Made by a program: the position numbers and the translations under genes. Below are positions 8,155 to 46,762 of a stretch of 64,000 nt of DNA, piece after piece; position 1 is the first letter of the stretch; the number at the start of each line of letters is the position of its first letter. The stretch is from Marsupella aquatica (taxonomy: Eukaryota > Plantae > Marchantiophyta). The notes below the pieces were generated by a model. It was not told the origin of the DNA. It ran no database searches and saw nothing but the letters and a program-made list of their open reading frames with translations. Location of the stretch: contig OZ316891.1 in NCBI GenBank assembly GCA_973895155.1, forward strand, positions 10,417,875 to 10,481,874, in the 5' to 3' direction.

Positions 8155-10938
8155 TTCTCGTTTGGTGGTCATACTTCTCGTTTGGTCCGTCACTGTGTTT
8201 GATGTGTCCATACCAGAGAGATTCACCACTCTTGTCACAGGATCATTAGAATTAGAGAGAATGGAGGCAAAGTCAGTTTTGTTTAGATTTTTCCTTTTCA
8301 AACCACGAGTATTTGGTGTGGTTATGAGAACTGTGTCATGCCGATGGGAGTCTTGTGGAGAGACAGTCCCAGTTGCATGTCCCTTTCTCTTCATTGACTT
8401 GGTCACGATATCTCCGTTAAGGGGAGTACTTCTTTCCAAATCAAAGTCCGCCGCATTGGAAAGAAGCATGTTGGTCGCATCTTCAAATAACCTCGGCGAA
8501 CCTGCTTGATCGGCGGAATGGAACGCCAATTCCCATATAGTCGGTCCCTTTCCTATGTTCAACCCTTTTTTATATGCACTATATCCCGCAACTTGAGACA
8601 GGGCTCGGTTTTGGTCAACTTTGCATGCTTCAAAAAGACCAACTTTTTTCTTTGTAGCCCAGGCTTTCATAGACGCATGCCTTGATTCTGACCCTGTACA
8701 ATTGGGAATCAAGGCACCTTCTGCGCTTTTGCTCTGCCATAGTCCGAATGCAATAATCAGTACTAGCATTGTATTACTAGCGCCCGACGCTGGCACCGAC
8801 AAGTATTTATAACATATGTGAAATACAATTGCAATTATGATTTTGGAACTTTGTGGACATGTTGGACTCAAATACGAGAAAATCATACGGTCAGCGTCTG
8901 GCGCTAATATAAAGTTGATGGAAATGAAAGACAAGAGAGGAGATGGATGTCATACCACTCGAATAAAATTGCCCCACTGGCGCCATTGAATAACCCACCA
9001 GGATATCCAGCTTTGTAGCATCATGAGCTTTCCAGGGACACAGTTTCCTGATTGCCACCAAACCACAATCTCTCAGGACACGCGATACGCTACCACAAAT
9101 GTTGGAGCGTTTCTTAGTTTCTCCCAAAGTCTCCGATGTTCCGATTGACATTCTTCAAGTACTCCTTCCTTGGAATGCCGATGGAAAGATTGATAAAAGT
9201 GAAATGCATCAGAGCGTTCCCTCTCCGGGTCTGGGTGTGCACCAAAAAAAACATTCCGCACAGCATTCCATCCAGCTTGTGCATTGTCCGCCATAAACCC
9301 TTGGATGACAACCTCCTATAATCCATTCTCCTTGCAAACCTCAATCATAACTCTCCAAGCCTTTTCGAAAGACTCAGTGTCTTCACCTTTCAACTCGCAT
9401 GTGAAAATTGTACATAGTGCACGGAAGTTATGGTCGTAGACATGCGCGCTAAAAGTCAACCAATCGGTTGTGATACGGTGCATCACATCAAAACTGACCC
9501 AGGCTCCTTTGAGTCTTCCACCAGGTTGCATTTGTCTCAAAAGATCCACACCGGAACCGTGACCCTTCATGGTCATTTTAAAGATGTGAGGCCTGTCGTC
9601 TTGACATCCCTGACCCCGGAGCAATACCTCTGGAGAAACGATAGGTTAATCCTCTTCTGCATTGGCGAGAGAAAATCTAGTTCACCCCGCCCCTTTTGGT
9701 CTATCCTAACGCTCTGACAAAGAGATGCAAACTTTTGGGGAGTGGAAAGTACCATCAGAGACTTCCATATTTCAGTTTCTTTGATATCAACCATGTCGTC
9801 AACATGTTTGCAGAGAGCTTTCACTATGGACCCTGTAGCAGAATTCAAGATCCCAGCTGGTTTTGCGAGAGGATTGGCTTCATGATTTTTTTAATTAAAT
9901 CCTCAGCCATCTTCTCCGCACTCCTACAGAAGGTTTTTCTACCTGGATGGATATGATCACCTATATGAATCGCCAAGCGGGATATATGACTACATGTTTC
10001 CGCATCAAGTAATACTTGCGGGTACATATAGAACAAACGGGCAGGCAGTCTTTGACACAAAAAGGAATCTGATCACAATAATGACATACAACACCGCCCT
10101 CTTTGATAAAAGATCTGACAGCATACGGACCACTAAGCTTTGGAGTACCGTGCCATGCCTTAGCATTTGCCTTCTTTTTCCTTTGGAAGTACTCGTAGGA
10201 CTTGTTCCGACATTCAATGAATCCCGTATAGGTAACCTTACCGAATTGCCAAAGTTTTTTTGGCTGAACATTCGCGGTAGTTGGAAATATGCATGTCCAA
10301 ATGTAGCAATCTTTGGCACGGTCCATGTCCCTAAGCCTAGAGCCTTTAGAGAGCATCTTGTCAATTGGTGGCAATTCAAACATGACGTTCCCATTATACT
10401 TAGTTGGCAGACAAGAGACTTGCTCATGTTTGAAATCACCCGCTGATATGAACCTTGATAACTCGCTATGACCAGTGGATTTGAGTAACGTATCCATCGC
10501 ACTCCACCGATACATGATCTCCAACTGGTTGGAGCTTCCTGGAGTCTCACCTTTAACGATAGCATATTGCGGGACTTTCATTTTCAACGTAGGACTTGGA
10601 GTGTGATCTCCATCTTCACTAGAAGAAATCTCGACAACATCAAATGGAACTTGGGGGACACTAGACGGTCCTTCATGTTATCTTACTCAAAGTGAGTACA
10701 AAATCCCCGCATATAGATGCCAAAACCGTTCACCATCATCCACATTGAATGTTGCTGCATCTTTGATGTCATCACTGGTTTTGAGCTCTCGAACAATGGC
10801 CTCAATATCATTCATCTTCAAATCAAATCTCCTGCAAAGGTGTCTCTCCCAAACCTGCTTGTAGGTGTCTTCCACAGGGACGGGGATGGTCACAATATCC
10901 CCAGTCTCGAATCGGGATAGAACGATGGACCGAGACAT
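8155..10938 (-). pseudogene. Mutator-like (MULE) transposase with N-terminal WRKY/GCM1-like Zn-binding domain, frameshifted
   Basis: CHYC..CVKDCPARLFY...RLAIHIGDHIHP (GCM/FLYWCH-like). WVSFDVMHR..W.TFSAHVYD. MADNAQAGWNAVRNVF...RSDAFHFYQSFHRH (DxxH in place of CxxH). WISWW. NCTGSESRHASMK. Intron at about 8734-8955. Confidence 0.78.
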
Positions 10939-11900
10939 TGCAATCGAAAACAAATAACAAGGGCTGTAATGTTTCGAGGAAGAAAAGTCTATGGTAATAT
11001 GGATCTTGTATCAGTCAAACCTGGGAACTTCATGTAAACACATCCGTTTGTATAAGACATAAACCATAGTCGACATAGGATCCGTTGGCGCCATAAATGA
11101 ATTTTGTCATTTTTCCCCGATAAGTCCGGATGTCAGACGCATACAGAATGCCAAAAAAGACACCACAAAAATCTTTAACAGACTCTAAGATATTGTATAG
11201 TTGAAACAATTTGAGTAGCGCCTGGCGCTAACTAAAATACCTCAAACATAATAGGCCCCAAATCTCGATATTCCATACTAGCGCTTGGCGCTAGTATACG
11301 AAAAACCCTCCAGATATCCATCAATACTATGAAATAATTGGATTTAAATGATCAATGAAAATGTCAATTCTTTTAGAACTATGGATGAAAAATACTCGTT
11401 ATCACTAGCGTCGGGCGCTAGTATAGGATACAAGTAATGTTTCCCAAAAACCATGAAAACAATACACATTTCTTTAAATATGGGGTTGTTTTGACAAAAT
11501 TTATTTATTGGAGCCACCATTTCAGACCTATTCTATAGCTGATGTTTTTACTAGCGCCGGGCGCTGCCATGACAAACATCCCAATTATCTACTTCAAGGA
11601 AAGGTATTTATAATAGCGCCCGATGCTAGTATTTCGTGTGAGGGAGGAAACGGTCATAACGGGAACATTTAACGGTAACTTCTGAGTTCCGTGTGTGTTA
11701 CCCCTCTTCTACCGCTTGATTTAGCTAATTCAGATCTCCGTATACAGACGTTGGAATCTGCCAAACTTACGAGCTTCTCCCTTTAATCGAAGAGTTCCGC
11801 TGAACTGCATCCTCCTTCTAGAATATATTACACGTTGAGAGTTGATGAGAGTTCCATAATTTCATTGTACGATAGTTTGTACGCTTCTGGAAGGAAGACG

Positions 11901-14900
11901 ATGGAGGTATTCCCCTCTTCATCCAGAGGGTATAGTGTTGTTCTTGACCAAGACCGAGCTTATTCTGAATCCTCACAGTCTTTGTTTACTGGTTCAGTTT
12001 ATACACGTCATGTAACTCGTTCCACAAAGTTGCTGCCTCCTACTTCTATTAGCGTTGTTTTGGTTCCTAAATCTCTGCGTAGAAAGATGGAGACCCTCGA
12101 CACGATTGCGATCCAAGATGTTTTGGACTGTGCACTTACGGAGACTGATCTCATCTCCAAACATGTCATGTGTTTTGGAAAGGATTCTCATGGATTTGAC
12201 AAGGAGCCGCCTCGAATCCCTCTATGCCAATTGGTTCACATGGAGGTGGTTTGTACTTTGCAGAAAGATAGCTCTTCCATCGAGAAGCTGAAAGACTCGT
12301 TTTGCAGTATGGGTTACAATTCATCCATAGGAATGCGTTTCTATGTGCAACCAACGAATGAAAATGGAATTGTTCTGACCTGTACCCAGGAGATTCGTGA
12401 GTCATGGGATCCAATTTGGCAATTGGAGAACGAGAAGTTTGAGGCCTGCTGAATGCGAGGCTGACCCAGATTTTCTCGTGTTGAAGGATAAGATGTTCTC
12501 TGTCTTCGATGGAAATCACAGGCTGTACTCATGGACGCTTGTTATCGAGGAGAACCCTGACAATCCAAAATACCATCCTCGAGTGCTCTGCACAATATTT
12601 AAGGGAGACAAGGGATCTCTTATTGAAATTGAGGCAACTATGCACACCGTGAATCAGTAAGTTCCCGTTCTTTTCTGATACCTTCTTTGAATCTTGCGAG
12701 TGTTCTATTTAAGAGCGCTCGGCGCTGGTTATAGATAAATTGTACTTTGACTCTAACTCGCTGCTTCTCTTTGTGTAGGCTTGGCCAAGCCGTTGTTGAG
12801 CCATCCTGGATCCTCGATGCAGATAGAATTAAACGCATGACCTTGAGTATTACAATAAACTGATTGACCCGACTAATTTCAAGAAGTTTGAGAGCATTCG
12901 GCTAAAGACTCGGAAGGGGTCGTGGTATACGAAGAAGATGCCACAAGAAGCTCTTGTTTACATTCTATGTGAGAATAAGATAAAGTCCTATTCGCACAAA
13001 TTCAAGCTTGACATGGAGGCAGCCAAGGCTCAAGGGAGTTCCTGGTTGGTGGACGAGATTTCCAAACGCCATGCGACCATGATGAAGGATGCAACCAAAG
13101 ACTGGGCAGTGAAATCCTCAAAAATTACACCCTTGTTAAGTCCTGAATTTGAAGATTTTCTTAGTACATGTGCAGAAATGTATGCTGTCACAGAGAGAAA
13201 CAAGAGAGAGAAGAAGCCTGACGCCGTTGTATGTACAATGGACCGCGCCCGATTGTTCACTGCTGTTTCTGCCCTAGACCCAAAGTTGCAAAGCACCCTA
13301 CTTGTGGCACATTGCAATCCTGAGTTGCGGAGACAGTTTTTCCACCCGGCAAGTGTTAACAACGACCCAGTCAAACAATGGTGTCATACTTGGATCACTT
13401 GGAATAGTGTAGAGGGAATTGCTGTCGGCATGTTACATTCATGTCTGCGTGAAGTAGAGCAAACGATGCTCGCGACTAGATTAGAAGAGTGGAATTGTGG
13501 TTTGTTTGATGATCTCGTTCAGTTTGTTACCAATGAATTCAAGAAATATGGTGATTCTATGAAGAGTAAGTTCTTTCACACTATGTGGCCTTCAAAGTAT
13601 CCAGACAAAGAAGACTATACCCAGAAAAACCAGAAGCGGGCTAAAAGGTATCTTTACAGGTTCTACATGCACATGGAGGTAACCAAACCTGATTACTTTT
13701 GGGCATATCCTGCAGCTTTCATGAAGTGGATTACAATAAGTGAGGATGACGCCATAGCTGATTTGTACTCCATGTACCTAGCGGAGGGCATATTTCCTCC
13801 GAGACCTATGACAGAATGGGAGAGAACTCACTGCCCCTGGTATCTAGATACAGATAGATGGGATTCTCCTTTTGATCAAAGGGAGAAAGATGCATTCCAT
13901 AAGCTTTCAAAGTCCCACCTACCAGCAAAAGTTGTGTCCAACATGAAGCAGGACCTGCTCGATGATGTAGACAAGTTTGCCACTGACTTGCAAAGTATCT
14001 ATGAAACGACTATTGTTCATGTGGACCGAAGTCGCAAACCTCATGCGAAAGCAAAAGCGGAGTTAGTAGCACCAAGCGAGTCAACAAAATCTGGGAGGAA
14101 AAGTGAGTATAGTGTTCCATAGTTTGGCCAGCGCCTGGCGCTGGCTTGAACTGTCATGCAAATCCACATTTCTTTCTACATTCTTAGGCCATTGTAGAAA
14201 CCTAAGTGATTTGCATTTGGTTAGCGCCTGGCGCTAGTTTGTTTGAAAACTCGGATTTACTTGTTCTAACTATGACCTATTGATAATTTAGGAGGGAGGA
14301 AGTCTAATACAGCGGGAATAGGAGATGCTAAAATGGATGCTACACCTGAAGTTTCTGAGGCAAACACCGGAGCCCGATCGGACCCCATTACTCCTGTCGA
14401 CAAGGGGAAGGTAATAGTTTCGGTCGACGCCACAAGTACCAGGAAGAAACAAACAAGAGCTATCAAAGGTGGACCTTCTTCAAGGGAGAGTGTTGTAGCA
14501 TCTGGTGTCCAACCTGAAGTTGCAAACTTCAAAACTAGAGTGTCTCGTCATGCCATGAGACAAGCATATCCGAATTTTTTTACTCGACTTTCAACAAGGG
14601 GGAAAAACCTGAATGGGTTAGTAATGTGGAGAAGTGGGGGAAGGATCTCGTTAAGTCGGGATATAAAGAGAAGGGTGTTGTGCGGGGAGGAAAAGAAAGA
14701 TAGTTTGGAATGGATGCGGGTTTCATTTATCTACCGACCGGGTTCAAACCAACGATCATAGATAAGAAGGTTCCTAAATGGAACACTCCAGATCACTCCA
14801 TGGCTAGATCTTTTTTCAAGTCCATGGATCCATTTCTATCAGATGATGGATTCCTTGCAATTCTACACAATGGGGAGTATGATCCCATGTCTCAAGTCAT

Positions 14901-16071
14901 TGCTGCATGTCAGGAGTCGAGAAAATTTCAGTGCATATGCATGCATAATGTTGTAATGTCTGTCCCGATGTACGCGGCAAAGATAGACCGTCAGGTAATT
15001 ATCTACTCTTAACTATATCACGTTTTGAGTTATAACTCATTTAACCTGGAGTTTCCAACTGACACTTGGGATTGCTTTCCGCAGATGTTTACCCTCAGGT
15101 TGGACATATTTGGTCGAATTAATGGGAAATGTAAAATTCCCAAAGACCCTAAATTCCGTCCACTATCCATCAGTGAGGACCCCTCGGTCACCAATTTGAT
15201 CGGACTCCTTTCTCTCAAATCTGATCCATTCCTGGAAATGGAGTTTTCTGGAAATGCTCGCCTATCTATCGGGTTTATGCAATCTGTCATCAAGCTTGTC
15301 ACCCGACCTCGTGATATTTTTATGGATTGGACCGCTGGGGCTGGAAGCTCCTTCACAGCTGGAGACTTCTCCGGGAGGTTTGTGCTCGGGATAGAACATA
15401 TATAGAAAAGAATTTATTGAAACCGCTTCGAAGGTTTTCATGGATTTGTTGTCTCCCAAAGAGATTGCGGTTTTACCTCCACCTGTTCCTATTGCCGACA
15501 GGAAGAAGCAAGATAAGCTTCGGTCAGTACTCAATTTTGATTCTGATGATGAGTCCAGTGAAGGTGGAGGTGGAGAGGAACAAGGTACAGGGGACTCGGA
15601 GGAGGAAAAAGAAGAACCTTGTGGATCTCCAGATGAAACCGATAGTGATGACTCTTTCGAGTAATGTTCATAAACTTGTAAGCTTCTTTCTCCATTCCCG
15701 TCAATTTATAACATTTCTGTGTTGTTTTGGAGAAAGGCACCTAACTTTCTGGATTTCGTTTCATCAGGTCAGAGTGGAATGCAAGGAGACGTTTCAAACT
15801 GTGGAGGAGGGTTGCTAGACACAACATAGAAACTCCAGAAAAACCTTTTGTTCTTCCCTCCTATGCAGAGAAAGCCACAAGGAAAGCCGAGAGTATAAGG
15901 ACGCTTTGCTGGGAAAATAAAGGTCTTCGGTTACAAAGGGGTGTTGAAAGGAAGTTCATTAAACATCCTTACGTGGATGATTTCTCCCGCAACCAGTACG
16001 TAGATGATGAGGCCGTATCCACGGACAAATCTGAGAGTACAGATTCTGGTTCCGAATCAGAATTTGCATAA
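11901..16071 (+). pseudogene. Multi-exon gene: N-terminal ParB/Srx-like domain, helical middle region, degenerate beta-class amino-DNA-methyltransferase domain, acidic tail
   Basis: RIPLCQL..MEVV.TLQ...IEKLKDSF..MGY...FYV and FSVFDGNHRL (DGNHR at 12508-12522). Motif-IV-like DAGFIYLPTG (about 14713-14742). IKLVTRPRDIFMDWTAGAGSSFTAGDFSGRFVLGIE (motif I at about 15325-15345). Introns at about 12657-12778, 14103-14291, 14994-15084 and 15661-15768. Several frameshifts, e.g. about 12450 and 15400. Confidence 0.72.
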
Positions 16072-16474
16072 TCGTGACACGTATTGAGGAATTTAGGGAG
16101 AAATCTTTTACCAGCGCCTAGCGCTAGTACCAACTTGTATTCAAATCCTCTCATTGGATCCTTATAAATTAATGTCTCATGACTTGTGTTTTTTACAAGC
16201 GCGAGGCGCTCGCCAAATGGTGATTCATAAAGCGAATATTTCCAGCTCTTATTTGTGTAACACGGCCGTTTGGTCTTTGTGGTGTCCTACCAACGGTCAT
16301 CATAATGAGACAAATAATAGGCAATAGATAGTGTAATATACGTTTCGGATACCAACGGCCATTTCATTTAGGTCCGTTAGTTTGCCAAAAAAACTCACAT
16401 CGATTGTATTCAGACGACATTTTTGGATCTCTAGGATGACATATTTGGATCTCTTGTTCACGATAGTTTTCAAG

Positions 16475-16560
16475 GACGACACTTTTCGCGGACGACAAGT
16501 TTTCCGACCGACGACTATTTTGGGACCGACGACCATTTTCTTAGACGACACTTTTCCCTC
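16475..16560. repeat. Short tandem array of GACGAC(N)TTTT units (about 16-20 bp, 5 copies)
   Basis: gacgacacttttc, gacgacaagttttc, gacgactattttg, gacgaccattttc, gacgacacttttc. Confidence 0.7.
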
Positions 16561-16688
16561 ACTTTGATTCTCGCGGTCGATAGTTTTTGTGCCCGCGACC
16601 ATTTGAGGACCTTTTGCGGGAGATATAGTTCAAGTGTTTCACGGGAGATATTTATCGCGGATGACATCTATCGTACCCACGACCGTTT

Positions 16689-17231
16689 GTGGACCTTTTT
16701 GGACCTTTTGCGAACAATTTTCACATTTTTTTAGAGGGTAACTTGACACTTGATCTGGCTCTATTCAACATGGACAGAAACGGTGAGCTCATGGATTGGG
16801 AGGCAGCGTTCCTCCCTTCTCGTGTGCGTCCGGAAGAGAGCCATTTCAGTTCTTTTGAGTCCCAGATGGAGACTGAAGCTACTGAAACCTCTACTTTCCA
16901 GAATCGTCATGCTCTACCGTATGATGAGGCTATTAGTCCTGGAGAAAAGAACATCCCGTGGATCGTCAATTCTCCTCCGCTCCCATTTGCAAATAGGTTC
17001 TCGTCTCATCAAGTTGTTCCTGTTGATGGTGTACTGCCAATCGACAGGAGAGTTCAAGAAATGTTTGGGCGAGTTGACTTTAAGGACAGTAATATTCCCA
17101 ATGAAGGTTTTACAAGGGCAGTGCGTCAGAGTCCTTCTGAGAGATACATTCAATTGTGTGGTCTTGGATTCAAGAAAAATTGGAGGAGAGAAGCGGTAGG
17201 AGTGGAGGATGATTGCAACTCTGAAAGCTAG
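16689..17231 (+). CDS. Orphan ORF inside the Mutator-like element, function unknown
   Basis: 180-codon open frame. No motif recognised. Confidence 0.3.
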   Translation: MDLFGPFANNFHIFLEGNLTLDLALFNMDRNGELMDWEAAFLPSRVRPEESHFSSFESQMETEATETSTFQNRHALPYDEAISPGEKNIPWIVNSPPLPFANRFSSHQVVPVDGVLPIDRRVQEMFGRVDFKDSNIPNEGFTRAVRQSPSERYIQLCGLGFKKNWRREAVGVEDDCNSES

Positions 17232-17890
17232 ATACAATCACTTATTGCTTGTTCCTCCGGTTTGTCACGAAGAACGGCATCACATTGTTCAGTTTGGTGA
17301 TCACTTTAAGCTAGCATCGAGCACTGCTTAATCTCTTTCGATGTTTCTGGATGGAGTCGTCTTTGGCTTAGTTTTTAGGGTTTTTCCCGGTTGTTGTCTT
17401 CAGGAATTCCATAGTTTTTCCTGCAGTTGTTGGCTAGCGCCGAGTGCTGCTTTTGTTTTACTGGCAATCCTCAGACGGGGTTGACCATGCCTTCTGCATA
17501 TCGGATTTCCACACCTGCACTTGTTAACTTATAAGTGCATTTTTTGGACCTGCGCCGAACGCGTTTTGTATTTTGCGACTATATATGACAGTTTTATTTT
17601 CCCCCTGCGCATTTTGACATATATTGGTCTCAAATTTTGTTTATCTCAATTGTGAGACGGTTTTATTTGTTGTAAACTACATGATTCCATTTAGTCCGAT
17701 TTCCTTTGACTCAAATTTGACCGTCTTGATTTCTATACCAGTAGTTTGAAATGCATATTTTGTCCCCTTTTTTGGTGATCAATGTTCACTGCTAGCCAAA
17801 CACTGTTCATTGGTAATAGTTTCTTTGGGCTGATAATAGTAACTGTTTGCTGTTACTGTTATCTGTTTGCTGTCGTTTGTAAATTTCCCC

Positions 17891-32852: not shown

Positions 32853-35186
32853 GGTGATGCACTAAACAGATCAGAGAACCCTCCAGGATAAACTACTAGA
32901 AGGGACATGAATTCAAGAACTGAACTGACACACCTGTTCACCAAAAAATTGCATCGACAAACCATCAACTTGCAGAGTCCAAGACCTATAATGGCATCAT
33001 TCATGCCACCCTTAAAAAAAAACGAGAATTTTCGTGCGTTTTGATTGGGTGGGAATTGAGAGTCGCAACCTCTCATATCAGCCCTTGACAGTTTTGCCTT
33101 TTCTTGCCCTACCTCGCAAAGACAACTTACCCAAACCTTGAATGCACTCGCAATTTCAAGTCCAAGACGATAATTTTTTCTTCACAGCGACTACCAATTA
33201 ATATGCAGTCGGTTGTCGTGTTTCACGAAAGGCTTTCTAGCTCAAGCCCAGTTCTCTTCCCCCAATTTGGACCAGCATGAATTCCTCCTTGGATTAAAGT
33301 AGTAGCAAATATTTTATCCCATGGTGGCCAGTGCGGCTCTTAATTGCTCGCTTCACACAATACGGATCTGGGACTGGGCTTCAAGGCATTCAGGGGTATC
33401 GTCCAGACTTCTCTACCTTACTTGTCGAGGCCAGTTCTAGTGGACAAGGTGGCAATCTGAGAGCAGCATCAGTCAGAGATTGGCTTCATCATTATGTGTC
33501 TTCTGGGATGTAAAGGAGTCGAAGTAGAGGAACCTAAGTTGCCCAGCTCTTTGGACACAATCAGACGCGATGAATATTGCTATGTTTGCTTCAAAAGGTT
33601 CGCTACTTGCCTAGGCGATGACGTAGTGGCAGTTCAGGCTGACCACCCAGTCCCCCTAAAAGGGCTTTACTATTTTGAGGTCACTATGGATTACCTCGCA
33701 GGACTGAGTGCAACATGTTTAGGAAGTGCCGCCATAGGATTCTCTGATGAGAAGTTCACTTTCCACAACGCAGTAGGATGGGTGCCCAATAGTTTTGGGT
33801 ACCATGCGGATGGGAAGCTCTACCGTGGTTCAAAAACGGGCGAACCATTTGGCCCCACTTTCACACAATTTGACACTGTGGGTGCAGGTACGAACGATGC
33901 AAACAGTAGCCCACTCATGTCTTATAATTCCTTTGCATCCATAAAGAAGAGTGTGAGCGATGCAGTTGCTTATTAGGATTTAGTACGGAGTATTGATATG
34001 CCTACCAACATCGATCCAGCCATGCTAGTTCTCTTGCAAATTGTTAAGCATTCGTGAAACTATGGTCTAATTCAATGCCTGGGTCAGATTTGATTAGCCT
34101 TGAATTGTGAAATTCTGAAGTCCTAAGATATTCCCATCGTTTTGTGGGAAATTGAACCTAAATAATGAACCAAGATTACTTATAAATTCCAGTGGGCATC
34201 AATAGCAAAAAGAATGAGGCGTGGAAAGCCGTTCCACTTGGAACATTTGGCTCAACTTTCTCACCTGGAGATATTGAGGGTGCAGGTTTGAATTATGAAA
34301 CCAAGAAGATGTTTTTCACAAAGAGAGGCCGGATGGTGGGCAGATCAGAAATTGACCCCCATACTCAGGGGCGACTGTATCCCACCATCAGCCTGACGGG
34401 CCCCAACTCAAACGTGAGCGTCAATTTTGGGCAGGACCCCAGGAGGCCTTTCAAGTTTGATACTGTAGATTGTTGATATGTTCAGATGATGGTGTTCATC
34501 GATCCGAGCCACCAAACATGAACTTTAATAATGCCCTTGAATTTTCTCTGTGTAGTTCAGTGCATTCATGGGGAATGATAGCACACTCAAGATTTGGAGC
34601 TGCACCTTTTGGCAATAAGGGTTGGTTCCAAATACTTACAATTTTGTGCCATGTTTTCAAGTAGGATTGACAATAGTGTGTGGATTGTGAACATGTGGAT
34701 TGCAAACTTGACTATATTTGAAACCTTAAATGTCTTCCTGTTTGCTTGCAAAAGTTACCGATACACTGATTGATATGGAGTCTCGGGGGGGTCACTATAT
34801 GAAGGGTCATACATCACGTGCGACGGTTTGGGTCATTTATGACCCCCTAAGTCACTTTCTAGAAAGTTGTACGACACCAATCATGTGATGACACGTATGC
34901 ATTTTGCAATTAAACAACCCTATATTTCCATAGAAAACTTAATAAGTCTTCCGCCAAAACCATTTGAATGGCCCTATACTTCGCACATGATATGCCACTT
35001 CCATGGAAGTGACCCCCCCGAGTATGGAGTACATCTTAAGGGGTGTTATGGAGTCTACCCTAGACTCAACAAGAGTGCTGCTGACCATGCAGTAAATTGA
35101 TTGCCATAATATGCAATTGCTTATTCATTCAAGCAACAAATTGAACCTAAGTAAATATTCTCTAGTTTACAGATGATCAAATATTT
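32853..35186 (+). pseudogene. Copy B of the MFL1-carrier/SPRY chimeric segment (SPRY ORFs 33494-33976 and 34192-34476)
   Basis: LYYFEVTM...GWVPNSFGYHADG and FSPGDIEGAGLNYETKKMFFTKRG..LYPTISL..VNFGQ..FKFD. Inverted relative to copies A and C. Confidence 0.8.
34782..35022. mobile_element. MITE (241 bp) with 8-bp TSD
   Basis: 15-bp TIR CTCGGGGGGGTCACT. TSD TATGGAGT (34774-34781 and 35023-35030). The paralogous empty site is present in copy C (about 44840-44850). Confidence 0.95.
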
Positions 35187-35289
35187 CCGTTTTTTCCTCT
35201 GAACCCAATTTAAGGAAAATTGAACTTTGACAATAACATGTCACGCGAATGGTCGCGTCACATATTACAGACAAACAACACATCCTCTA

Positions 35290-35982
35290 CACTCTGGCAA
35301 TTGATAAGTGACGTCTGTTGAAGTGCTTGATAAGAACTTGATCCGCATGTCTCTGCACGTACAGATGCTCCCATATATCCTCGTTTAGAGCCCAATCTCG
35401 ATGTAGATTTCTAATCGACCAGATGGGATAATCGAACGCAAGACAAAGCCCTAAATCCGATAGCTTTCATAAATATGGAATGAGGTTATCCCTCAAAAAG
35501 ACATCATCCAACGATCCTTGAAATGACTTTGCGAACAATAATCCGCATACAGCTGTCTGGCATGTATGGGATGGATAGGCATCAATCTGGATTATATTCT
35601 TTGGTCGATAATCTTGAAACATATCACGCAGTCTGTCCATAGATTTGAAGACAACAGTCTCATAAGATTTCTTCACATAACCAAGATGCCAGCAATGATC
35701 CTACGTGAAAACATATCTCAGCTGCGACAGGTCGGTGGTCGACGACACTTTTGAAAGTATCCGATAAACTAGCTTATCCTCGAGAATAGACCAGACCATC
35801 ACATCAAAATAATCATAACAGAATTTTATAAAATCATGAAGATGCAGCCTCAGAACAACACATAGAGATCCGATACAAATTTCCGTAGTCGACTTGAGCT
35901 GAGGAGTATATTTTGTAACAGAGCATAGAAAGTTTTCCACTCCTAAAACTAGAAGTTGACGTGACTTGCTCCACTTAGACAC
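35290..35982 (-). pseudogene. Degenerate FCP1/NIF-like HAD phosphatase domain
   Basis: RQLLVLGVENFLC...VVLRLHLHDFIKFCYDYFDVMVWS, then YRPKNIIQIDAYP...FQGSLDDVFLRDNLIPYL. The DxDxT motif is lost and there are internal stops. Confidence 0.6.
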
Positions 35983-36113
35983 CTGTAAATGAACAATTTG
36001 ATTCTCATATTATGCAATCGCAAACAACCACGCGACCGGACACGTCACTCCCAAAATACAAAGTTCAAGTTCAATCAATTTATAAATAATAATTATAAAT
36101 AAACAATAAACAT

Positions 36114-36660
36114 TTACTTATCGGACTTATCGCGTGCTTCCATAGTATAGTCTTTTTTGGCAGATAAGTATTCCATATATTTGTCAAACTTTTGTAAATG
36201 GTCTGGATTCCCCTGATTACAAATGATCATATTTCTCCTCCAAAGATTTGCCTTATCAATATAATTTTTCTCAAGATTCTTGCGAGAGAACTTTGGAATA
36301 CCATATCCACTAAGGAGCTGACGGAATGTCAACTTGTCAATTGACATGTCACATAGATATGGATATAGTTTCTTTCTAAAAAATATGTCATCATTGAGCC
36401 CAAAATATGGATCGGGATACAACGATGAGTAGAAGTTATTAAGGCTCGTCTTATATGCTACATCATCGATAATAATGTTGACATTCTTGATGTTGTAATC
36501 CTTAATATCGGCAACAATGTCGGAGAGATATTTGACAAATAAGGGGATGTCATTATTATTCTTACCAATAGGTTGAGTTGATTCTTGTCCCCAGATAAAT
36601 TTAATACGTTTCAACACTATGGGTTGAAGTATCAGCCTTACAGGGTATAGCGACGGAGAT
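36114..36660 (-). pseudogene. Second FCP1/NIF-like HAD phosphatase fragment (C-terminal half)
   Basis: FIWGQEST...PLFVKYLSDI...YNIKNVNIIIDDVAYKTSLNN..SLYPDPYFG..DDIFFRKKLYPYL. Confidence 0.65.
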
Positions 36661-36918
36661 AGGAAACAGGTACACGGGAATTTTATTTCCTGTTTTGAAT
36701 ATGCTGTTACCAGCAAAAATTTACTGTTACCAGGAAAAATGACAATTTAAAAATATCTACTAAAACATGTCATTTTCAAAAAAATGAACAATGCAACATT
36801 TTTGGCTAGCTTTGGGCGCTACTATTCCACCCATTTTCTTGTTACCAGTTTTTTTCCTGTTACCAGTTTCTGTTATAAACTCCTGTTTCCTGTTTCGCTG
36901 TCTTTTGTAAACACCTCA

Positions 36919-37340
36919 TCTCAGAGAGGGTCTCTGAGAGGTTGGGTCTCATCTAGCAACCTTTTTGACCCAAGAGGAGGTCTGGGTGAACTACTCTCTG
37001 GCCACTTGGGTCACACGGCTCCATCTCAGAGATGGTCTCCGAGCAATTGGGTTGCAATCTCGCTTCCCTTTCCACCCAAGACGCGATTGACATTTTTTGT
37101 CGTTTGGCCGTTCGGGCCACACCACTCCATCTCAGAGAGAGTCTCTGACATTGGATGTGGGATAGAACCAATTTGGGTCCTTCCTTTGAAATGGAATACC
37201 CTTAATTTCATCTTGGAGAGGGTCTCTGAGAGACAAAGTGTATGTTGTAGCTAACCCTTTGAAACTATTACGAGGGTCCACAAGTTGTGTCATCTGGCCA
37301 AAGTATGCCCACGACTCCATCTCAGAGAGGCTCTCAGAGA
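36919..37340. repeat. Five copies of the palindrome TCTCAGAGA-N3-TCTCTGAGA at about 80-110 bp spacing
   Basis: 36919-36939 (perfect), 37024-37044, 37130-37150, 37211-37231, 37320-37340. Confidence 0.9.
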
Positions 37341-37439
37341 GGCTAGGTTTCATCTGGCAACCTTTTTGACCCAAGAGGCGTAATTTTCTACCGTGAAGTT
37401 CACTAGAGTGTTGCACTTTTTTCTACTTCTCATATTTTA

Positions 37440-37460
37440 CCCTAAACCCTAAACCCTAAA
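37440..37460 (+). repeat. Interstitial plant telomere-type repeat (CCCTAAA)3 / telo-box
   Basis: ccctaaaccctaaaccctaaa. Confidence 0.7.
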
Positions 37461-38475
37461 CTCTTTACTAAAACAAAACCCTAAGCATAATTGGCCGCCT
37501 TCATTAAGTCTCCTTCAACAAACCCTCCTTGACCTTGTCAACTTGTGCTCTTCCCCCTTCTCTTAACCCCAATTTCCTCTTTTAGTTAAGCCACCCAAAT
37601 GATCATGTGGGCAACCATTTCCTCTTTGAGTTGAGGCACAGAGATGTTGACACGTCTTAGTAGGTCTCGGAATGAAATGATGGCGAGGGTCTCTTAGATT
37701 CGGACTCGTTTGAGCTGTAGGCCGAAGTCCCTAATTGTACCCTAAATGTACCCTAAACTTTCTCGTACTAGTGGTCAGTACTCGCATTAGCATTGTGTAC
37801 TTTCTTGTTTGGGCCGTTAACAACATGTACGTATTGAAGTATAGTTAGGATCTCCCGTATCTATTGCGTACTTAGTGTTGTGCAATACGTGCGGTACGTT
37901 TTTCCTTGAAGAGGATGTTGTTCCTTCCTCGTCACTCTTCCACGGTGTGACATTAGGTTTGGCACTCGTCTTCATCACTAATCCCCGGACCTCCTCACTT
38001 TGCCTCACTCTTTTGCGCAATCCCTCACTCGCCCACGCTCTCATTCGTGCTCTTCCTCAATCTTTGCATATTGGTCTGTGCAATCTCTCACTTCTCTGCG
38101 CTCACATCCGCGTTGTTCCTGCTCTTCTTCAGTTGTCCCACTCACAGTAAACTCTCCTGTGCTGCAACCCTGTTATCGAGTCTATTGGATTGCGTTGGTG
38201 TTTTGAGGTAGTGAGCTAGTGGTAGCTTCTCCGTGAGCGTTTGCGACAAAAAAATTTGTGAGTGTTGGTGATTCTCTCAGGTTTTTCTCTTGGCTCCCCC
38301 TTTTTCTTGATATGTCAAATTCATTTGTACATGAATCAAATGTGTGAAAGGCTGGACCCCGCGTATCCTTGAAAACTGGCTCTCTCGGCGGGGCTCGCTG
38401 AGATCTTGTCAGGTTTATAGGTCAAGCTATTGCTGAGTAATGACTCTTTCATTTCTCATGTAATCTTAGGTCAAA

Positions 38476-38789
38476 ATGCCAAAGAGGAAAGACTCGACTG
38501 GAGCTGGACCTGCCAACAGCCAAACTTCTCATCAGAGTAAGAAACCACGATCCAAGTCTCCTTCGCTAGTCATGTCTCGACTGACGCGCTCACAGGGTGG
38601 TCCACTTATGGAGTCAGTCGACTCCAGAGGAAGTTTGAGCCAAAGCAGATATCATTGGAGCCTATTGGAGCGGCAAAATTGGCTGATATTGCTGAGAAGG
38701 GAGCTTGGGATTCGATTGTCTCCAAGTATGAGACAAAGTTTAGTAAGGATCCGCCCCGGATCCCCTTGTGCCGGCTCATGCCAATGGAG
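38476..38789 (+). pseudogene. 5' fragment of a second ParB-like gene, paralog of 11901-16071, truncated by an LTR-element insertion
   Basis: An alternate frame gives SIVSKYETKFSKDPPRIPLCRLMPME, versus LISKHVMCFGKDSHGFDKEPPRIPLCQLVHME in the 12.2-kb gene. It ends abruptly at TGTCACGCC (38790). Confidence 0.7.
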
Positions 38790-41030
38790 TGTCACGCCGT
38801 AAGCTTCATCCTTACACGGAGTTTGGCTTAGATGGGCATAATCTTCATCAGTTTCGAGGGTTTGGGCAAGGAGGAACGTGCAGACTGAACCTTACTCCCG
38901 TAATCTAGCACTAAGTGCGCCTATTCTTACTTACAGAAATGTCATGGGTATAATTATTTTGTGTTCCGCTGCCGGAACGTACCTTAAGTCGATAGCTAGA
39001 TCGACCCCGGCTTAAGGGCTTCTAAGCCTTTGTACTGGCCGCCTTCAATCCGGATCCGATAATATGGGTATCCAACCCGGGCTTGCAACCACCATCCGCA
39101 GCCTACACCCCATGCACGGCTCAGATGATGCATTTGTCCAAGCATTCTCTACCCATATACAAGATTCATACATGCAACTGAACTTACACACATACATCTC
39201 GGTTTACACGAAGGAAATGGTGGGAAAAGACTTTACTTTAGAATCCGTCATACACATATGCACGGTTGAATTGACATCTTTTGAGTAAACAGGCCCAACG
39301 GCAGAGCGGCATACACTACAATGGAGCTCGGCTCCGCACTCGCCCAGTGAGCTTAGTCGTACCCTCCCTCATTGGAATCTTTTACTCACAAAGGCTGGGA
39401 CTCCTCGCACATCATATGGATACCCGGTTCTGAAACTAAAATCCCCCTACCTCTATTGGGGGGTGCACTAAATACTAAGAGCCGGGGTCCGGACCGACCA
39501 CGTGCTCAAATCTAAGCGATCCAAGATTCTAAACTCTGCTAACTGTTAGGCCGTAAAATGACATGTCTTATTCTAAGATCGATCCTAACTACGAAGGTTG
39601 GCCGGATAGGACAGCACTGCTAACTAGTGTCGGCGCTTGTCCGTATTGCCTGACTATCCTATTTCTAACTCTATTCTAAACGTATTTTGCCACTAATGTC
39701 CGGCACGCTTGCCAGATCCCCCAGAGTTGGACTTGGAGCGGCCATCCCGTTGCCTTCTGAGACAGTCGGCGTCCTATTTAAGCAACTGGACCTGGTCCAG
39801 CAGAGATTTGTTTTCTCATTTTGCCGCGTCCGTCTCCTCTATGACTTCCTGGCACGCCTCCTCCAGTTGTTGGGCGTCGCTCGTCAGCTTGTCCACCACT
39901 GGGCCTGCTCTGTGGCTTCTCCTTGAAGCCGTGCCACTTCCGCCTTCAAAATGTCTATCTCGGCTGTATCCCGTTGGGCCTGAGCGTCGGCCTCCTCCAC
40001 ATCCTTTTGCCAGATGACGGCTTGTCCCTTCAAACCGTCAATCTGGGTTCGGAGCCGTGCGATCTCAACGTCTTTCTCGGCTCTGGCCTACTCTGCCAAA
40101 GCTGCCCGGGCTCTGGCTTCGGCCACTTGATCTTCAGTGGCCGCTACCTGAGGTTGCAACAGTTGGAGTACGTTTGGTCTCTCGGGCTGCCATTTCGTCT
40201 TTCAGGTGGGCAGACTCAACTCGATACCGATCTATTCTCTGCGTAGCCTCAGACTGTGCATGCCCTACTTGCACGGCCGCAACCAACTCCTGGTTGAAGA
40301 AGTAGGCCACCAGGTTGTTAGATATTGCTCTAGTCTTGTGACTCATGAGCTAACCACAGTTAGTCTAACTTGGGTTAGGACTTAGCTAATGTTAGCGGTA
40401 GTGCTGTTGTGTATATAGCCAGGGCTGAAGCCAGACCCTGGCGGAACTTAGGCTCATTGTTACGGAGCTAATTGAGAGATAGGGAGAGCTTGTGCTGTGG
40501 ATGCTTGGTATGGCCGGTCGGCCTAGAGTGCAGTAAAGCTCTTGTGTGTTCCCGTGGACGTAGCCTCATGTGGAGGCGAACCACGTATCTCTCTGTGTTG
40601 ACTATTGTGCATTGATGGTTCATGGGCTTGCCGTTACAAATGTCGTCTATGCTCAACACACCTTCCGTGCCATGTACTCCCCGGTATCCCGTGCAATTAG
40701 TTGAGAGAAGTCTCCTAGCAACCCATTCAGAAATGTGCTCGGTGCAAAGAGTTCCGTGTAGTCCAGACTATGCCCATCCGGGTTCAGGCAAGGACAGACC
40801 TCAGCTTGCACGGGAGTTGGAGTGGAGACATCCAGTCCTTGAAGTATGACAGTAGAGGGGGCTGGGTTCACTGGGGCTGGGCGGTTCTCCTGAACAGCCG
40901 TGGAGGGTGGCGGGATCTCCTCTACCACTGTAGTCTCAGGCTCGGGTCCGGCCTCTGCCAGCCCGGCTTCAATCGCGCTGATCTGGTTGATCGATCCATG
41001 ACATACCTCAACCCCTAGAGCAACTAAAAC
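38790..41030 (-). mobile_element. Remnant of an LTR (probably Ty3/gypsy) retrotransposon end region with a decayed coiled-coil ORF
   Basis: Begins with an LTR-like TGTCACG end. Broken minus-strand ORF at about 39690-41020 rich in E/Q/K/R. No TSD or pol domains seen. Confidence 0.45.
40316..40658. mobile_element. Solo LTR
   Basis: TGTTAG...CTCAACA. Degenerate TSD CAGGT/CACCT. Removal rejoins the interrupted ORF in frame (EYMAR-NLVAYFF). Homologs at about 51403-51730, 51732-52072 and 62592-62970. Confidence 0.75.
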
Positions 41031-42097
41031 ATCTGGGTCATCAGATCCACCCAAAGGTATGATGTCCTCCTCTTCCACTCCAAAGGAGTCTATCATGTCC
41101 TTTGGCCAGATGGAGTCATTGTCATCCTGCATGACATGTTGGTAATTGTTGGAGTCTAAGATAACAATGTGCTTGAGAACTATTTTTCCAGTGACATAAT
41201 CGTTTGGGTACATATAATTAGCATGATACATCTAACAATTTTGTATAAATAGTCATTCATTGGTTGAACCTGAGACATTGTGGTCAGGGAAAACATCCTC
41301 ATGCCCTCCCCCCATTCCTCCCTCGTTATGTGTGGGCTGCTGCTTATGTAAAGAGTCCTGAAAATTCACTGCAATTGTTAGGCTCACAAAGCAGAAGGGA
41401 ATAAATTGTGTGACTTCAATTTCATACAATACAAAAAACAATTGAAATCCATGACTTCAGACCAAAATCCATTTGTTAGACTAGTGTTGCAATTCCATTT
41501 TGGATATATAGGCTTTTATAATGTACAATGTAAGAGAAATACATTGTCTTACACAAACAAAGTTGAACCTGAGACATAGGGACTTGTGTGACTTTCATTG
41601 GACACAACATCATAAATTGTGATAAATCTTTCCAATGAAAATGAGGCAAGAAGGCAAATAACCTAGAGGAGCCTACATTTGGCTCCTCCTCAACCAGGTC
41701 TGAATTGAGATCAAACATGACGGTGTCGGGTGCAGCGAATGGTTCTGGTCTCTCTGCCCCAGATGCCAATGCGTCATGCTGGATTGTTGCTGCCTCATTT
41801 GCTCCCTACATCCTCAACTCATCAATTTCAACTCTACAAGTGTCAAGCAACAAGTGAACAACTGTAGCATGTGTCGTATTTGGGCCATCCCCCAATAAAC
41901 CCCTTAAGACCCTCCCACTCATCCCATTGCTCCAATGGGACTCGGATTGGTGGCTTGGCAACCGGTCTTGTCCTCTTCCTATATTCCATGTCATCACTTG
42001 GATACTTTGGTCGTGAAGGACCAACACCCTGAGGAGGACGTTTACGACATCTACTAGGAAGATCAGGAGGCTCCCAGACAGCATGGTAGACAAAGTA

Positions 42098-42960
42098 AAA
42101 AACTGATGTGCTGCCGAAGTAAAAAATGACACCTAAAAAGATTACTATAGAAAGGTAGAACACTCCATCCCATACACTGTGGTAAACACATTAAAAAACT
42201 GATGTGGGGTAGCGAGGATCATCAGTTATCAGTTTTTCCGCCTTGAAATTTCTGAATGAGCAGTTGAGATAGGGCCTTCGTATTTTCGCGCATCTCGGCT
42301 GGGGCAGCTGAGATTGACTCAATCTCAGCTGACCTCGCCGAGGACAAAACAAAACAAACAAAAATTCCAACAACAAAAATTTGACAAAATTGGTGTCTGT
42401 ACCATACGGACATCGGACTATCTCGGCGGGTCTCGCCGAGATGTGGTATCTGTACGGTACGGACACCCATAGTGGAAAAATTTCTCCATCAAATTTTGAG
42501 AAAAAAATTCAATTTTTTTTCAGCGCCTCAACTTGGCGGCCTCTTTGAGATGATGTGGCGACTGATATCAGGTCGACTGATGGAAAACACTGATAACTGA
42601 TGATGTAGCTTTACTCAACTGATGTGCTCCCTAGGTAAAAAAACACCTAAAAGATTACTATAGAAAGGTAGGACACTCCATCCCATACACTGTGGTAAAC
42701 AAAGTAAAAAACTGATGTGCTGCCTAAGTAAAAAAACACCTAAAAAGATTACTAGAGTAAGGTAGGGCGCTCCATACCAAACACTATGGTAAACAAAGTA
42801 AAAAATTGATGTGCTGCCTCGGTAAAACAAATCACCTAAAAAATTACTAGAGGAAAGGTAGGATGCTCATACACTGCCACTGACATCAGCAAAAACCTGA
42901 TGTGCTCCCTAAGTAAAAAAAACACCTAACAAGATTACTAAAGAAAAGGTAGGACATAGA
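42098..42960. repeat. About 93-bp tandem repeat (about 5 units) interrupted by a 0.4-kb inverted-repeat-bounded insertion (about 42218-42604)
   Basis: Unit AAAACTGATGTGCTGCC..GTAAAAAAACACCTAAAAGATTACTA..GAAAGGTAG. Insertion bounded by CATCAGTTATCAGT...ACTGATAACTGATG. Confidence 0.75.
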
Positions 42961-44686
42961 CAGGGTGCCAAACCCCATCCTCTACATAATAAAGACAATT
43001 TTAGGTACTTTCACAAAACACAAGCGCATAACATAAGATGAGAAGGGGGAATTTGCAACTACCCTACAGAGACTACTTTTTTGAAGCTGCTATATGGTGC
43101 TTTCAGTATTTTGTCTTATTCAAACTTCTTTTGTTATGCATTTTTATTTCATTTTGTCTTACCAAGGTGCATTCCTTGTATAGTTTAGATTTTCAATTTA
43201 TTCTGGCACCCTTCTAATTCTTTGCTATATTTTAAGATCATCCACCCTCTAACAAAGCTCGTTGAATTTCTAGCCCTTATTCTCATGAGTACAGAAAAAA
43301 TGATCTAAATATAATGTGCACACCTTATGTCTTTAAGTACTGCTCATGGTTTTGTGTCATAAATTTATGGTTTTAATTATTTTGAGTATCATTATCTAAA
43401 GTAAATACTTAAGTATCTCTACTCATGTATAATATGTGCACATCCCAATACCATAAACTTAAACTTTCCTGTTCATTATTATTTTCTTTACATGTGTACT
43501 TTTATTTTTGTATCTTTTGTGCACAAGTTTCAATATCACAGACTGTACTTCTCCCTAGTCAATGTCCTGTTTTTATTTTAATTAGAACAGCTATATATCA
43601 TTAAAAAACAAAAAATGAAGCATGTTCCAAGATGAACATGCTATATATAAAGACAACAACTAAGACTGTTCACTAGTTCACCAGCCAGGCTTTTTATACT
43701 TTTTATACTGTATCCTAATCCAGTTCAGAATTTCATACATCCATAGGAGCCCTAGGATACTGCATGTGACGGATGTATTAGTATACATGACTTATACTAG
43801 AATCTCCATATGGGACAGAAATTGCCACAGAACTTCTTACTTTTCAAATATCTTATGAGCCAAGATTCTTCTCGAAAGCTCCCCATCCTTATGGAAATTC
43901 AATTCCCATCCATAAGGATAGCTTTTTGTAATGGTCCTGACAATCTCTTGACATGCTAAATAATGAATGCATAGATCTTACCTACGTCTTTTATGGTCCT
44001 TTATGGCACTTCACTTTGTACTGTGACTGCCCGAATCTGCCCACTGCAGCTGCCCGGATTATTTTGAATTTCAAAAAACATGCGAACCAATGGGATTGCA
44101 GCGTTTGTTTTTGGCTGTTTTCTACCAGAATATTAGGTATTTTGGGACACTGTTTTTTCCCAGTTGTAGATCTCGTCGAGATCTACAATTTGAGTCCAAT
44201 ATCGAATCGAACGGTCCAGTGTAGGCGCGGCTACAAATACATATCCGACGGATATTAGGAGGCGCAGCAGAAATATGCAAGGCAGACGATACGCGATACC
44301 TTTTGGTATGAGCACTCCGCGTAATGCAGAGTGCTAAATACGGCGAGTTGTGGTTTAAAATACATAGGCCTTTAACATGTAACGATTGAGTAACCCTTAT
44401 AAAAAATTTCTGCTGTATTTAACTTGTATCCGCTAGGTGTTCCTCATGATTATTATCGCCTTTGTATCCTATTGCCTTGTTTGCTTTGGTGGACACTGAT
44501 TTCTAAGTGATCAAAGTCTAGAATAAAACATAACATAAATCCAATGGTCAGGCATGAGGCCAAAGCAACTTCAAGTAAATTAAATGTTGTCATTGATAAG
44601 AAGAAATGATTAGTCACATGGAAAGATGCTTAGTACATGTAAACCTGCATCAAACATAAATGCAAGACACTAAGAGGAAAAACCAA

Positions 44687-46762
44687 AAATATTTGATCAT
44701 CTGTAAACTAGAGAATATTTACTTAGGTTCAATTAGTTGTTTGAATGAATCAGCAACTGCACATTATGGCATTTAATCTACTGCATGGTCAGCATTACTC
44801 TGGTAGAGTCTAGGGTAGGTTCCATAACACCCCTCTAGATGTACTCCATATCAATCAGGGTATCAGTAACTTGCGAGCAAACAGGAGGACATTTGGGGTT
44901 TCAGATATAGTCAAGTTTGCAATCCACATGTTCACAATCCACACACCATTTGTCAATCCTCCTTGAAAACATGGCACAAAATTGTAGGTATTTGGAACCA
45001 CCCGTTATTGCCAAAAGGTGAAGCTCCAAATCTTGAGTGTGCTGTCTTTCCCCATAAATGCACTGAACTACGCAGAAAAATTTCAAGGGCATTATTAAGG
45101 ATCGCGGTTTGGTGGCTCGGATCGATGAACTCCATCATCTGAACATATCAACAATCTACCGTATCAAATTCAAAAGGCTTTCTGGGGTCCCGCCCAAAAT
45201 TGACGTGCAATGTTGACCTTAAACCCTTCAGGCTGATGGTGGGATACAGTCGCCCTTGAGTTTGGGGGTCAATTTCTGCTCCGCCCACCATCTGGCCTCC
45301 CTTTGTGAAAAACATCTTCTTGGTTTCATAATTCAAACCTGCACCCTCAGTGTCTCCAGGTGAGAAAAGTTGAGCCAATTGTTCCATGTGGAACGGCTTT
45401 CCAGGCATGATTTTTTTGATCACTGGAAATTTATAAGTAATCTTGGTTCATTAGGTTCAATTTCCCACAAAACGATGGGAATATCTTAGGACTTCAGAAT
45501 TTCACAAGTGAAGGCTAATCAAATCGACCGAGGCATTGAATCAGACGATAGTTTCACGAATGCTTAACAACTTTCAACAGAACTAGTATGGCTGGATCAA
45601 TGTTGGCTGGCATATCAGTACTCCATACTAAATCCTAATAAGCAACTGCATGGCTCACATTCTTCTTTATGGATGCAAAGGAATTATAAGACATGAGTGG
45701 GCTACTGTTTGCATCGTTGATACCTGCACCCACATGGCTCACATTCTTCTTTATGGATGCAAAGGAATTATAAGACATGAGTGGGCTACTGTTTGTATCG
45801 TTGATACCTGCACCCACAGTGTCACCTACGTTGAAGGTTGGGCCAAATGGTTCGCCCGCTTTTGAACCACGGTAGAGCTTCCCATCCGCATGGTACCCAT
45901 AACTATTGGGCACCCATCCTGGTGCGTTGTGGAAAGTGAACGTCTCATCGGAGAACCCTATGGCAGCACTTCCGAAAAAAATTTCAAGGTAATCCATGGT
46001 GGCCTCAAAATAGTAAAGCCCTTTTAGGGGGACTGGCTGGTCAGCCTGAACTGCCACTACCCCACTTTTGCAAGTAGCGATTGTTCTAGACGAAACAGTG
46101 CAAAACGTATGGCGTCTGATTGTGTCCAAAGAGCTGGGCAAAGGTTCCTCTACTTCGACTCCTTTACATCCCAAAAGACACATAATGATGAACCCAATCT
46201 CTGACTGATGCTACTATCAGTGTGCCACCTTGCCCACCAGAACTGACCTCGACAAGTAAGGTAGAGAAGTCTGGATGATACCCCTGAATGCTATCAAGCT
46301 GGAGCTTTGAAGCACCAATGATCCCAGATACCGTATTGTGTGAAGCGAGCAATTAAGAGCCGCACTGGCCACCGTGGGACAAAATATTTGCTACTACTCT
46401 AATGGAAGGAGGAATGCATGCTGGTCCAAATGGGGTAAGAGAACTGGGCTTGAGAAAGCCATTAATTCGTGAAACAAGACAACCGACTGCATCTTAATTG
46501 GTAATCGTTGTGAAGAAAAAATCCTCGTCATGGGCTTGAAATTGCGAGTGCATGCAAGGTTAGGGTAACGTGTCTTTGCGAGGTAGGGCCAAGAGAAGCT
46601 AATATATTCTCTACTAAGAAAAGTCCTTTCCAATTTGGGTCGAAAAGGCAAAACTGTCAAGGCTGATATGAGAGGTTGCGACTCTTCCCACCCAATCAAA
46701 ACGCAAGAACATTCTATTTTTTTTTTAAGGGTGGCATGACAGATGCCATTATTGGTCTTGGA
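44687..46762 (-). pseudogene. Copy C of the MFL1-carrier/SPRY chimeric segment, with an in-frame 84-bp tandem duplication (45649-45816)
   Basis: SPRY ORFs 45635-46183 and 45148-45423. Reverse-complement match to 32980-35186. Confidence 0.8.

Follow-up and report, generated by a model that had tools for sequence, protein, structure and literature searches.

ParB, Noc and KorB are site-specific CTPases with an HTH-containing DNA-binding domain that bind a cognate palindrome as dimers and form a CTP-dependent clamp. Algal transposons that carry a ParB gene next to arrays of inverted repeats have been described before. In the red alga Bostrychia, main-text passages on PAG3 of Plavaka transposons describe tandem arrays of inverted repeats beside a ParB-like gene, and self-binding was proposed (bioRxiv 10.1101/2025.02.11.637652). 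In Ectocarpus, the element Sola1-1_Ec32 carries, opposite its transposase, a gene that joins a ParB-like part to an N4C/N6A methyltransferase, and similar proteins are mentioned in passages of the same paper for green and red algae (PMC12477816). The relevant part of a 2015 review by Iyer and colleagues covers ParB-HTH-fused methylases in chlorophytes and chytrids. The VANC/VANDAL system of Arabidopsis, which is Mutator-like, is described in passages on its motifs as having family-specific short sequences in introns and in intergenic and terminal non-coding DNA (PMC5735166), and family-specific motifs as in VANC/VANDAL are described, in the part consulted, for TnpA/Spm.

The locus described here lies in the liverwort Marsupella aquatica, in a window of 64,000 nucleotides (the whole stretch of DNA that was analysed). 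It is a dead, frameshifted and truncated remnant of a multi-copy plant repeat, and the family of its gene fits the transposon-borne ParB-like accessory type, with a multi-copy mobile element and adjoining inverted-repeat sites, the algal proteins being compared by architecture. A bacterial origin of the window was ruled out by a copia element, by spliced genes and by named relatives in Riccia and Calypogeia. The copia element (23115-28737) is nearly intact, with LTRs of 246 bp that are 98.8% identical, and contains in antisense a frame with an RNase H1 N-terminal domain (27825-28463).

The relic and its junctions

A fragment of 1,872 bp (36918..38789, plus strand) survives from a multi-copy element and comprises a palindrome array, a 5' non-coding region and the start of a ParB-like gene, its end junctions being visible in contigs of other runs. 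The fragment is covered by many diverged contigs and is multi-copy in all five runs examined; no single contig of the other runs spans both the array and the gene. On the left it is bounded by the right end of a different element (36800..36917, plus strand): behind 36917, 16 contigs of run X1 and 7 of run X5 depart from the window sequence with unlike flanks, in the manner of a transposon end, and over 75 nt this end is 69% like another at about 17890 (E=1e-5). On the right, a high-copy repeat starting with TGTCAC (38790..41000, the right end approximate) truncates the ParB-like gene and was delimited by contig joints and by a step in summed contig depth, a measure that served for junction placement only and that rises about 9- to 14-fold at 38786 in three of four runs; three contigs have different flanks before 38790. 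We infer that this repeat is LTR-retroelement-like, and a solo-LTR-like insert lies inside it at about 40316-40658, where contig joints skip 40308-40658. Given the two junctions and the truncation of the gene, the interval singled out in the preliminary description thus coincides almost exactly with a 1,872-bp relic between two other elements.

The gene piece is the 5' part of a ParB-like coding exon (38476..38789, plus strand) with its ATG at 38476; it is a pseudogene that lacks one base near 38626 and breaks off after 38789. Compared with P0001, an uninterrupted database exon that was taken as reference, residues 1-51 are 73% and residues 51-106 are 88% identical, in two frames. The frame damage is particular to the window copy, the extra base near 38626 being present in contigs of X1 and X5. 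The frame continues past 38789 in two X2 contigs and three X5 contigs (with the next residues of P0001, as judged by eye); an intron at 38800 as the cause of the break was ruled out, since other copies run on in frame. The DGNHR motif and all downstream coding sequence are missing from this copy, and a profile search did not find the remainder in the 64-kb window.

The peptide at 38739-38789 had been called homologous to that at 12195-12245, which agrees with a match of 12 of 17 residues, and the family profile recognises the region with E=3e-17. The locus had also been counted as the third of its kind; it has the third palindrome array but the second ParB-like gene, as six-frame profile searches of the window gave ParB-like matches only at 11.8-14.1 kb and 38.5-38.8 kb, and by the same searches a third ParB gene was rejected.

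Several other features were seen around the relic. Three CCCTAAA units of the plant-telomere type (37440-37460) lie within the fragment, just downstream of the array. Broken frames at 35290-36746 (minus strand) have a weak match to NIF/FCP1-like phosphatases (E=4e-4, below the curated cut-off) and are multi-copy in the runs; they are apparently cargo of the element ending at 36917, and we rejected the idea that these frames (35.3-36.7 kb) belong to the relic element, as they would lie beyond that junction. A repeat with a frame that we take to be SPRY-like (no Pfam match), next to a mitochondrial-carrier fragment, occurs in three copies that are 80-89% identical (17887-19374, 32853-35200 and 44673-46763).

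Palindromic sites of two subfamilies

The array (36919..37340) consists of five palindromic sites, each at the head of a tandem unit of about 105 bp that has decayed. The five palindromes reported earlier are indeed in place, at 36919, 37024, 37130, 37211 and 37320, with 0, 2, 1, 2 and 1 mismatches to the 21-mer then given, so that a single site is perfect and four deviate in one or two positions; 0.02 sites were expected by chance, and five were reached in none of 100 shuffles. Their distance of 1.1-1.6 kb upstream holds for the ATG at 38476 (1.14-1.56 kb), but from the peptide it is 1.4-1.8 kb. The spacings are 105, 106, 81 and 109, and the DNA between the sites is homologous in many unit pairs (z of 3.9-8.4 in five of ten unit pairs and at most 2.0 in the remaining pairs); because the sites head one tandem unit, they are not independent. 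The arms are 87% identical between units, a figure that is partly ascertainment, against 47% for the rest of the unit. Contig joints that skip or repeat units indicate that the number of units varies among other copies.

Two sites of the same type had escaped the first reading. One, at 37678..37698, is degenerate and scores 13.8 with a matrix whose background maximum is 7.3, and the other, at 38383..38403, has a GCG/CGC core, scores 19.6, lies 73 bp before the ATG and is linked to the start of the coding sequence by contigs of X1, X5 and X6. An AG just before the ATG suggests that the 38383 site probably lies within a 5'-UTR intron. The outer TCTCRG...CYGAGA is constant and the inner bases are variable, even inside one element, where the inner three arm bases give a GAG core in the upstream array and a GCG core at 38383; this variation is loose for a strict recognition code.

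Same-type sites are also present in a miniature transposon of 410 bp without a ParB gene (42207..42616), which has imperfect terminal inverted repeats and a target duplication of 9-10 bp. Its three sites (42293, 42323 and 42421) score 3.8, 2.7 and 16.8, only the last exceeding the background maximum, and their retention in a gene-less element is as expected of cis-acting elements. A target duplication of 9-10 bp is typical of Mutator-like elements, which are marked by duplications of 9-11 bp, terminal inverted repeats and a MULE transposase. The target duplication and the terminal inverted repeats are seen in the site-bearing miniature element, and the 38-kb fragment has lost both of its ends; the 38-kb repeat is likely a Mutator-like DNA transposon. 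The miniature transposon interrupts a tandem array of 94-bp units (42074-42956), and a separate, perfect palindrome of 25 bp lies at 44164-44188.

The other ParB-like gene of the window belongs to an element (8777..17452, plus strand) with a broken gene at about 11.9-16.1 kb, in which ParB-like, helical and methyltransferase-like parts follow each other, and with 14 sites of another palindrome type located upstream of the gene, in both of its inferred introns and downstream. This motif closes to TAGCGCC-N-GGCGCTA, from which sites deviate near the centre mostly by C>T or G>A. The two types had been said to share an N3 geometry, which is right in that both are odd-centred dyads and loose in that the 12-kb motif closes to a single-N centre; a GCG-N5-CGC core is common to many sites of both. 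Opposite to the 12-kb gene there are divergent transposase-like frames (9076-11010, minus strand) without a Pfam family match, which by motif presumably resemble a MULE transposase; of the two ParB-like genes, only that at 12 kb has such a neighbour. The database protein P0097 fuses a homolog of the 9076-11010 region to the helical exon of the ParB-like family, which hints that transposase-like and ParB-like genes may be neighbours elsewhere, too.

The surroundings of the 12-kb element contain further repeats. A 21-bp inverted match (19/21) at 7801-7821 and 16761-16781 flanks it, and the region 2220-7900 has an Ulp1 protease frame and, on the minus strand, a transposase-like DUF7869 gene. Five ATGGGAT[CA]C palindromes of mixed N2/N3 spacing lie at 6214-7853, in or beside reading frames upstream of the DUF7869 ORF, and no ParB-like gene was detected with them.

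The link between gene and palindrome was examined in relatives from outside the window. Scanning of metagenomes yielded two loci with DNA, L001 and L002, out of 226 pattern matches; both contigs are 1.2 kb long, and the upstream-array region is beyond their reach. The identity of L001 and of L002 to P0001 over the exon is 54-55%, and that between the two loci is 51%. Before their sequences were displayed, we had composed a degenerate pattern from the window sites; it has two matches in intron 1 of L001 and one in that of L002, against 0.01 expected in each. The motif is therefore carried, in the introns, by both outside relatives, about 54% identical to P0001, as the preliminary description expected of paralogs. 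When their introns are compared, no stretch aligns better locally than the 18-nt site itself, which lies 46 nt from the intron start in each, and the 12-kb gene carries its own site type in the same intron (centre 12720, score 19.7).

We built one matrix from the five array sites alone and one from only those five sites that lie upstream of the 12-kb gene, with the window outside 8-18 kb and 36.8-43 kb as background. The array-site matrix placed six of eight held-out sites (37688, 38393, 42431 and the three intron sites) above its background maximum of 7.3, the other two being sites of the miniature transposon; the three intron sites score 13.1-16.6 with it and about -15 with the 12-kb matrix. 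The latter found ten further sites above background, nine at 8.7-17.5 kb including both introns and one, with a score of 20.1, centred at 36814; this site is about 115 bp left of the array but on the far side of the junction, within 36800..36917. No site exceeds background with both matrices, in line with the earlier view that the palindrome differs in sequence from that of the 12-kb subfamily. It had also been termed private, which does not fit a motif that is common to relatives about 54% identical and to a gene-less miniature transposon and whose inner bases vary in one element.

A tree of 21 rows, in which the second 12-kb piece was left out, groups the 38-kb piece with L001 and L002 (93/95) and places the 12-kb gene in another group (98/95). 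Together with the matrix hits in the introns of distant relatives, this grouping indicates that the motif is subfamily-specific and conserved in non-coding DNA. The two motif types amount to one contrast on the tree, so co-evolution cannot be shown from it, and kin share non-coding motifs by descent, which counts against a link between site and protein.

The ParB-like family and its predicted fold

Named relatives of the protein come from the liverworts Riccia sorocarpa and Calypogeia fissa. A full HMMER search with the helical exon of the 12-kb gene for longer proteins found 96, and a word-index search found none. Relatives were absent from the pattern matches in viral (0/211) and prokaryotic (0/136) collections; three viral contigs in which a single exact palindrome occurs lack any gene for a relative, and we treated them as unrelated. 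The DGNHR motif, which the preliminary description expected in intact paralogs, is invariant in all 14 uninterrupted exon sequences found with P0001, the window copy ending before it, and presumably stands in place of the GxxRxxA box of ParB. Pfam scans returned no ParB or methyltransferase family, and no ParA family among the ORFs of the window; the exon profile gave no informative sequence match in the PDB, and a structure-atlas search with the 12-kb exon piece gave scores below 0.8 throughout.

Structure prediction supports the ParB-like character of the gene, with matches both for the exon model and for a longer Riccia model. The best of five P0001 models has a pLDDT of 71 (the other four 43-46) and retrieves sulfiredoxin, SbnI, KorB, ParB, Noc and SerK, with weak Foldseek E-values of at least 0.09; against 48,161 chains, the best eight all belong to the ParB/Srx superfamily (Z 4.7-6.7). 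These fold matches and the DGNHR motif, as tested on P0001, place the family by prediction in the ParB/Sulfiredoxin superfamily, whose N-terminal fold carries a G-x-x-R nucleotide-binding motif. The longer relative from Riccia, which stands outside the 38-kb subfamily, joins the ParB-like exon to the following helical region, and its model, derived from a 60-row alignment (pLDDT 77), aligns with almost all of the N-domain plus DNA-binding domain of ParB or Noc, over 179-199 residues (Z 8.5-8.9, rmsd 5.5-6.2). In an unbiased wide search KorB came first (Z 7.7, 196/201 residues). Taken singly, the DNA-binding domains of ParB (Z 5.3) and of KorB (Z 4.5) fall on residues 328-570 among unrelated helical proteins; the region is helical, and the family models reached no Foldseek E below 0.06 and no Z of 9 or more. 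Support for a predicted ParB-type DNA-binding domain after the N-domain is thus consistent but middling.

The sites as candidate docking points, and known systems

We consider it likely that the palindromes of each subfamily are docking sites of the ParB-like accessory protein on the DNA of its own element, which would thereby be marked. The intact protein, according to its predicted fold, would combine two ParB-type domains, one for nucleotide binding and after it one for DNA binding, and a dimer of the protein may bind the two-fold sites upstream, in the introns and downstream of its own gene. Bound protein might then form a coat on elements of its subfamily, together with non-autonomous copies in which the sites are retained. 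By analogy with the role of VANC for VANDAL, where an element-encoded protein brings about sequence-specific loss of silencing marks, such coating would most plausibly keep the elements free of host silencing. As subfamilies diverge, site and protein would change jointly.

The transposase could equally be the binder of the palindromes. If it or another element protein reads them, the ParB-like gene would be cargo that does not, and the sites would be subfamily-specific because the whole element is; we regard this as a rather unlikely reading, though the sites near the ends of the miniature transposon agree with it, as does their occurrence throughout the 12-kb element, even on its transposase side (8777, 8899), and transposases and TnpA-type proteins bind clustered family-specific motifs according to parts of the literature on them. 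However, introns of the ParB-like gene contain sites that are kilobases away from any end and whose intron position is conserved between relatives about 51% identical to each other, and the two-fold symmetry of the sites fits the predicted ParB-type DNA-binding domain.

It is improbable that the protein is an active N4C/N6A methyltransferase, or another modifier, that is loaded at the palindromes and marks its own element. Such self-modification is the proposal published, in the passages concerned, for the algal proteins, and a beta-class methyltransferase-like tail is known from two members of the plant family: in the 12-kb gene, where the motif-I-like segment comes last, the domain order (motif IV region first, then the target-recognition region, then the SAM-binding motif I) fits with a weak match to DpnA (E=0.83), and P0054 has methyltransferase-like neighbours in the structure atlas. 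However, no such tail is seen in the sequence available for the 38-kb subfamily, and the catalytic [DNS]PP[YFW] motif is absent at the expected place in all three sequences that reach it, which read YLPT, DLPT and SVGT there (the last placed by eye), and occurs in none of the 121 proteins fetched; the tail is probably non-catalytic. Identity with Marchantia DN4MT1 was rejected, as that protein has TSPPY in the passage describing it. The idea that the motif is a chance palindrome without function, which tandem duplication spread and which was passed on with the repeat, is even more improbable and largely already refuted, since for all that the five sites form one tandem array and that the high arm identity is partly ascertainment, the motif recurs outside the array, in the miniature transposon and in introns, where the site is the best-aligning block.

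Docking of the ParB-like protein is thus the reading that we prefer. A more elaborate form of it, which we put forward tentatively and hold to be doubtful, is a self-recognition code of liverwort-type transposons derived from a bacterial ParB/parS module, in which each subfamily would evolve a palindrome of its own with a DNA-binding domain to match, and a nucleotide-gated ParB clamp might load at intronic and upstream sites, spread from there and shield the element from silencing. If true, this code would be a second, independent invention of anti-silencing of the VANC kind, and plants would possess a natural collection of orthogonal pairs of protein and site. If docking itself holds, transposons would tell self from relatives by a bacterial partition protein, which would bear on how transposons escape silencing outside flowering plants.

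Among the matches listed in a search of the main texts of mostly open-access literature, we found no paper on a land-plant transposon-borne ParB or on sites that differ between subfamilies. What is new here is the out-of-sample evidence, drawn from sequence comparison, for candidate subfamily-specific palindromic sites.

Compared with bacterial ParB/parS, Noc/NBS and KorB/OB, the plant family is alike in a predicted N-domain followed by a helical domain that is putatively of the DNA-binding type and in two-fold sites of 15-21 bp, but it is eukaryotic, intron-containing and transposon-borne and has long insertions; a ParA partner was neither found nor expected, unlike in bacterial ParABS. VANC motifs, in the passages on them, are likewise amplified as tandem repeats and differ between related families, but they are 8-9 bp long and non-palindromic, and these passages draw no link between VANC and ParB (PMC5735166). 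Binding and anti-silencing are demonstrated there for VANC (PMC5735166), whereas for the plant ParB-like family they are inferred. Sola1-1_Ec32, as characterised in parts of its description, resembles the 12-kb element in its two-domain architecture, on which the comparison rests, and in transcription opposite the transposase; it differs in belonging to the Sola1 superfamily and to a brown alga (PMC12477816), and the plant sequences checked lack the catalytic motif. The term 'palindrom' occurs 0 times in the main text of that paper (PMC12477816). PAG3, in the main-text passages on it, similarly is an accessory gene of a transposon, encodes a ParB-like domain at the N-terminus and adjoins inverted-repeat arrays, but it has a C-terminal 2OG-oxygenase domain and belongs to EnSpm/Plavaka elements of red algae (bioRxiv 10.1101/2025.02.11.637652). 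The same passages give no family-specific site sequences for PAG3, and the supplements may hold the repeats (bioRxiv 10.1101/2025.02.11.637652). The plant family, set against PAG3 as portrayed there, has a methyltransferase-like tail and land-plant hosts, and its sites are found in introns as well as in a non-autonomous element. The two algal papers of 2025 proposed binding of the own element in passages that define no sites, and the plant family supplies candidate sites, two subfamilies in which these differ, intact proteins and a non-autonomous element that keeps its sites; with explicit candidate sites, two subfamilies and intact proteins at hand, a crossed binding assay is now possible.
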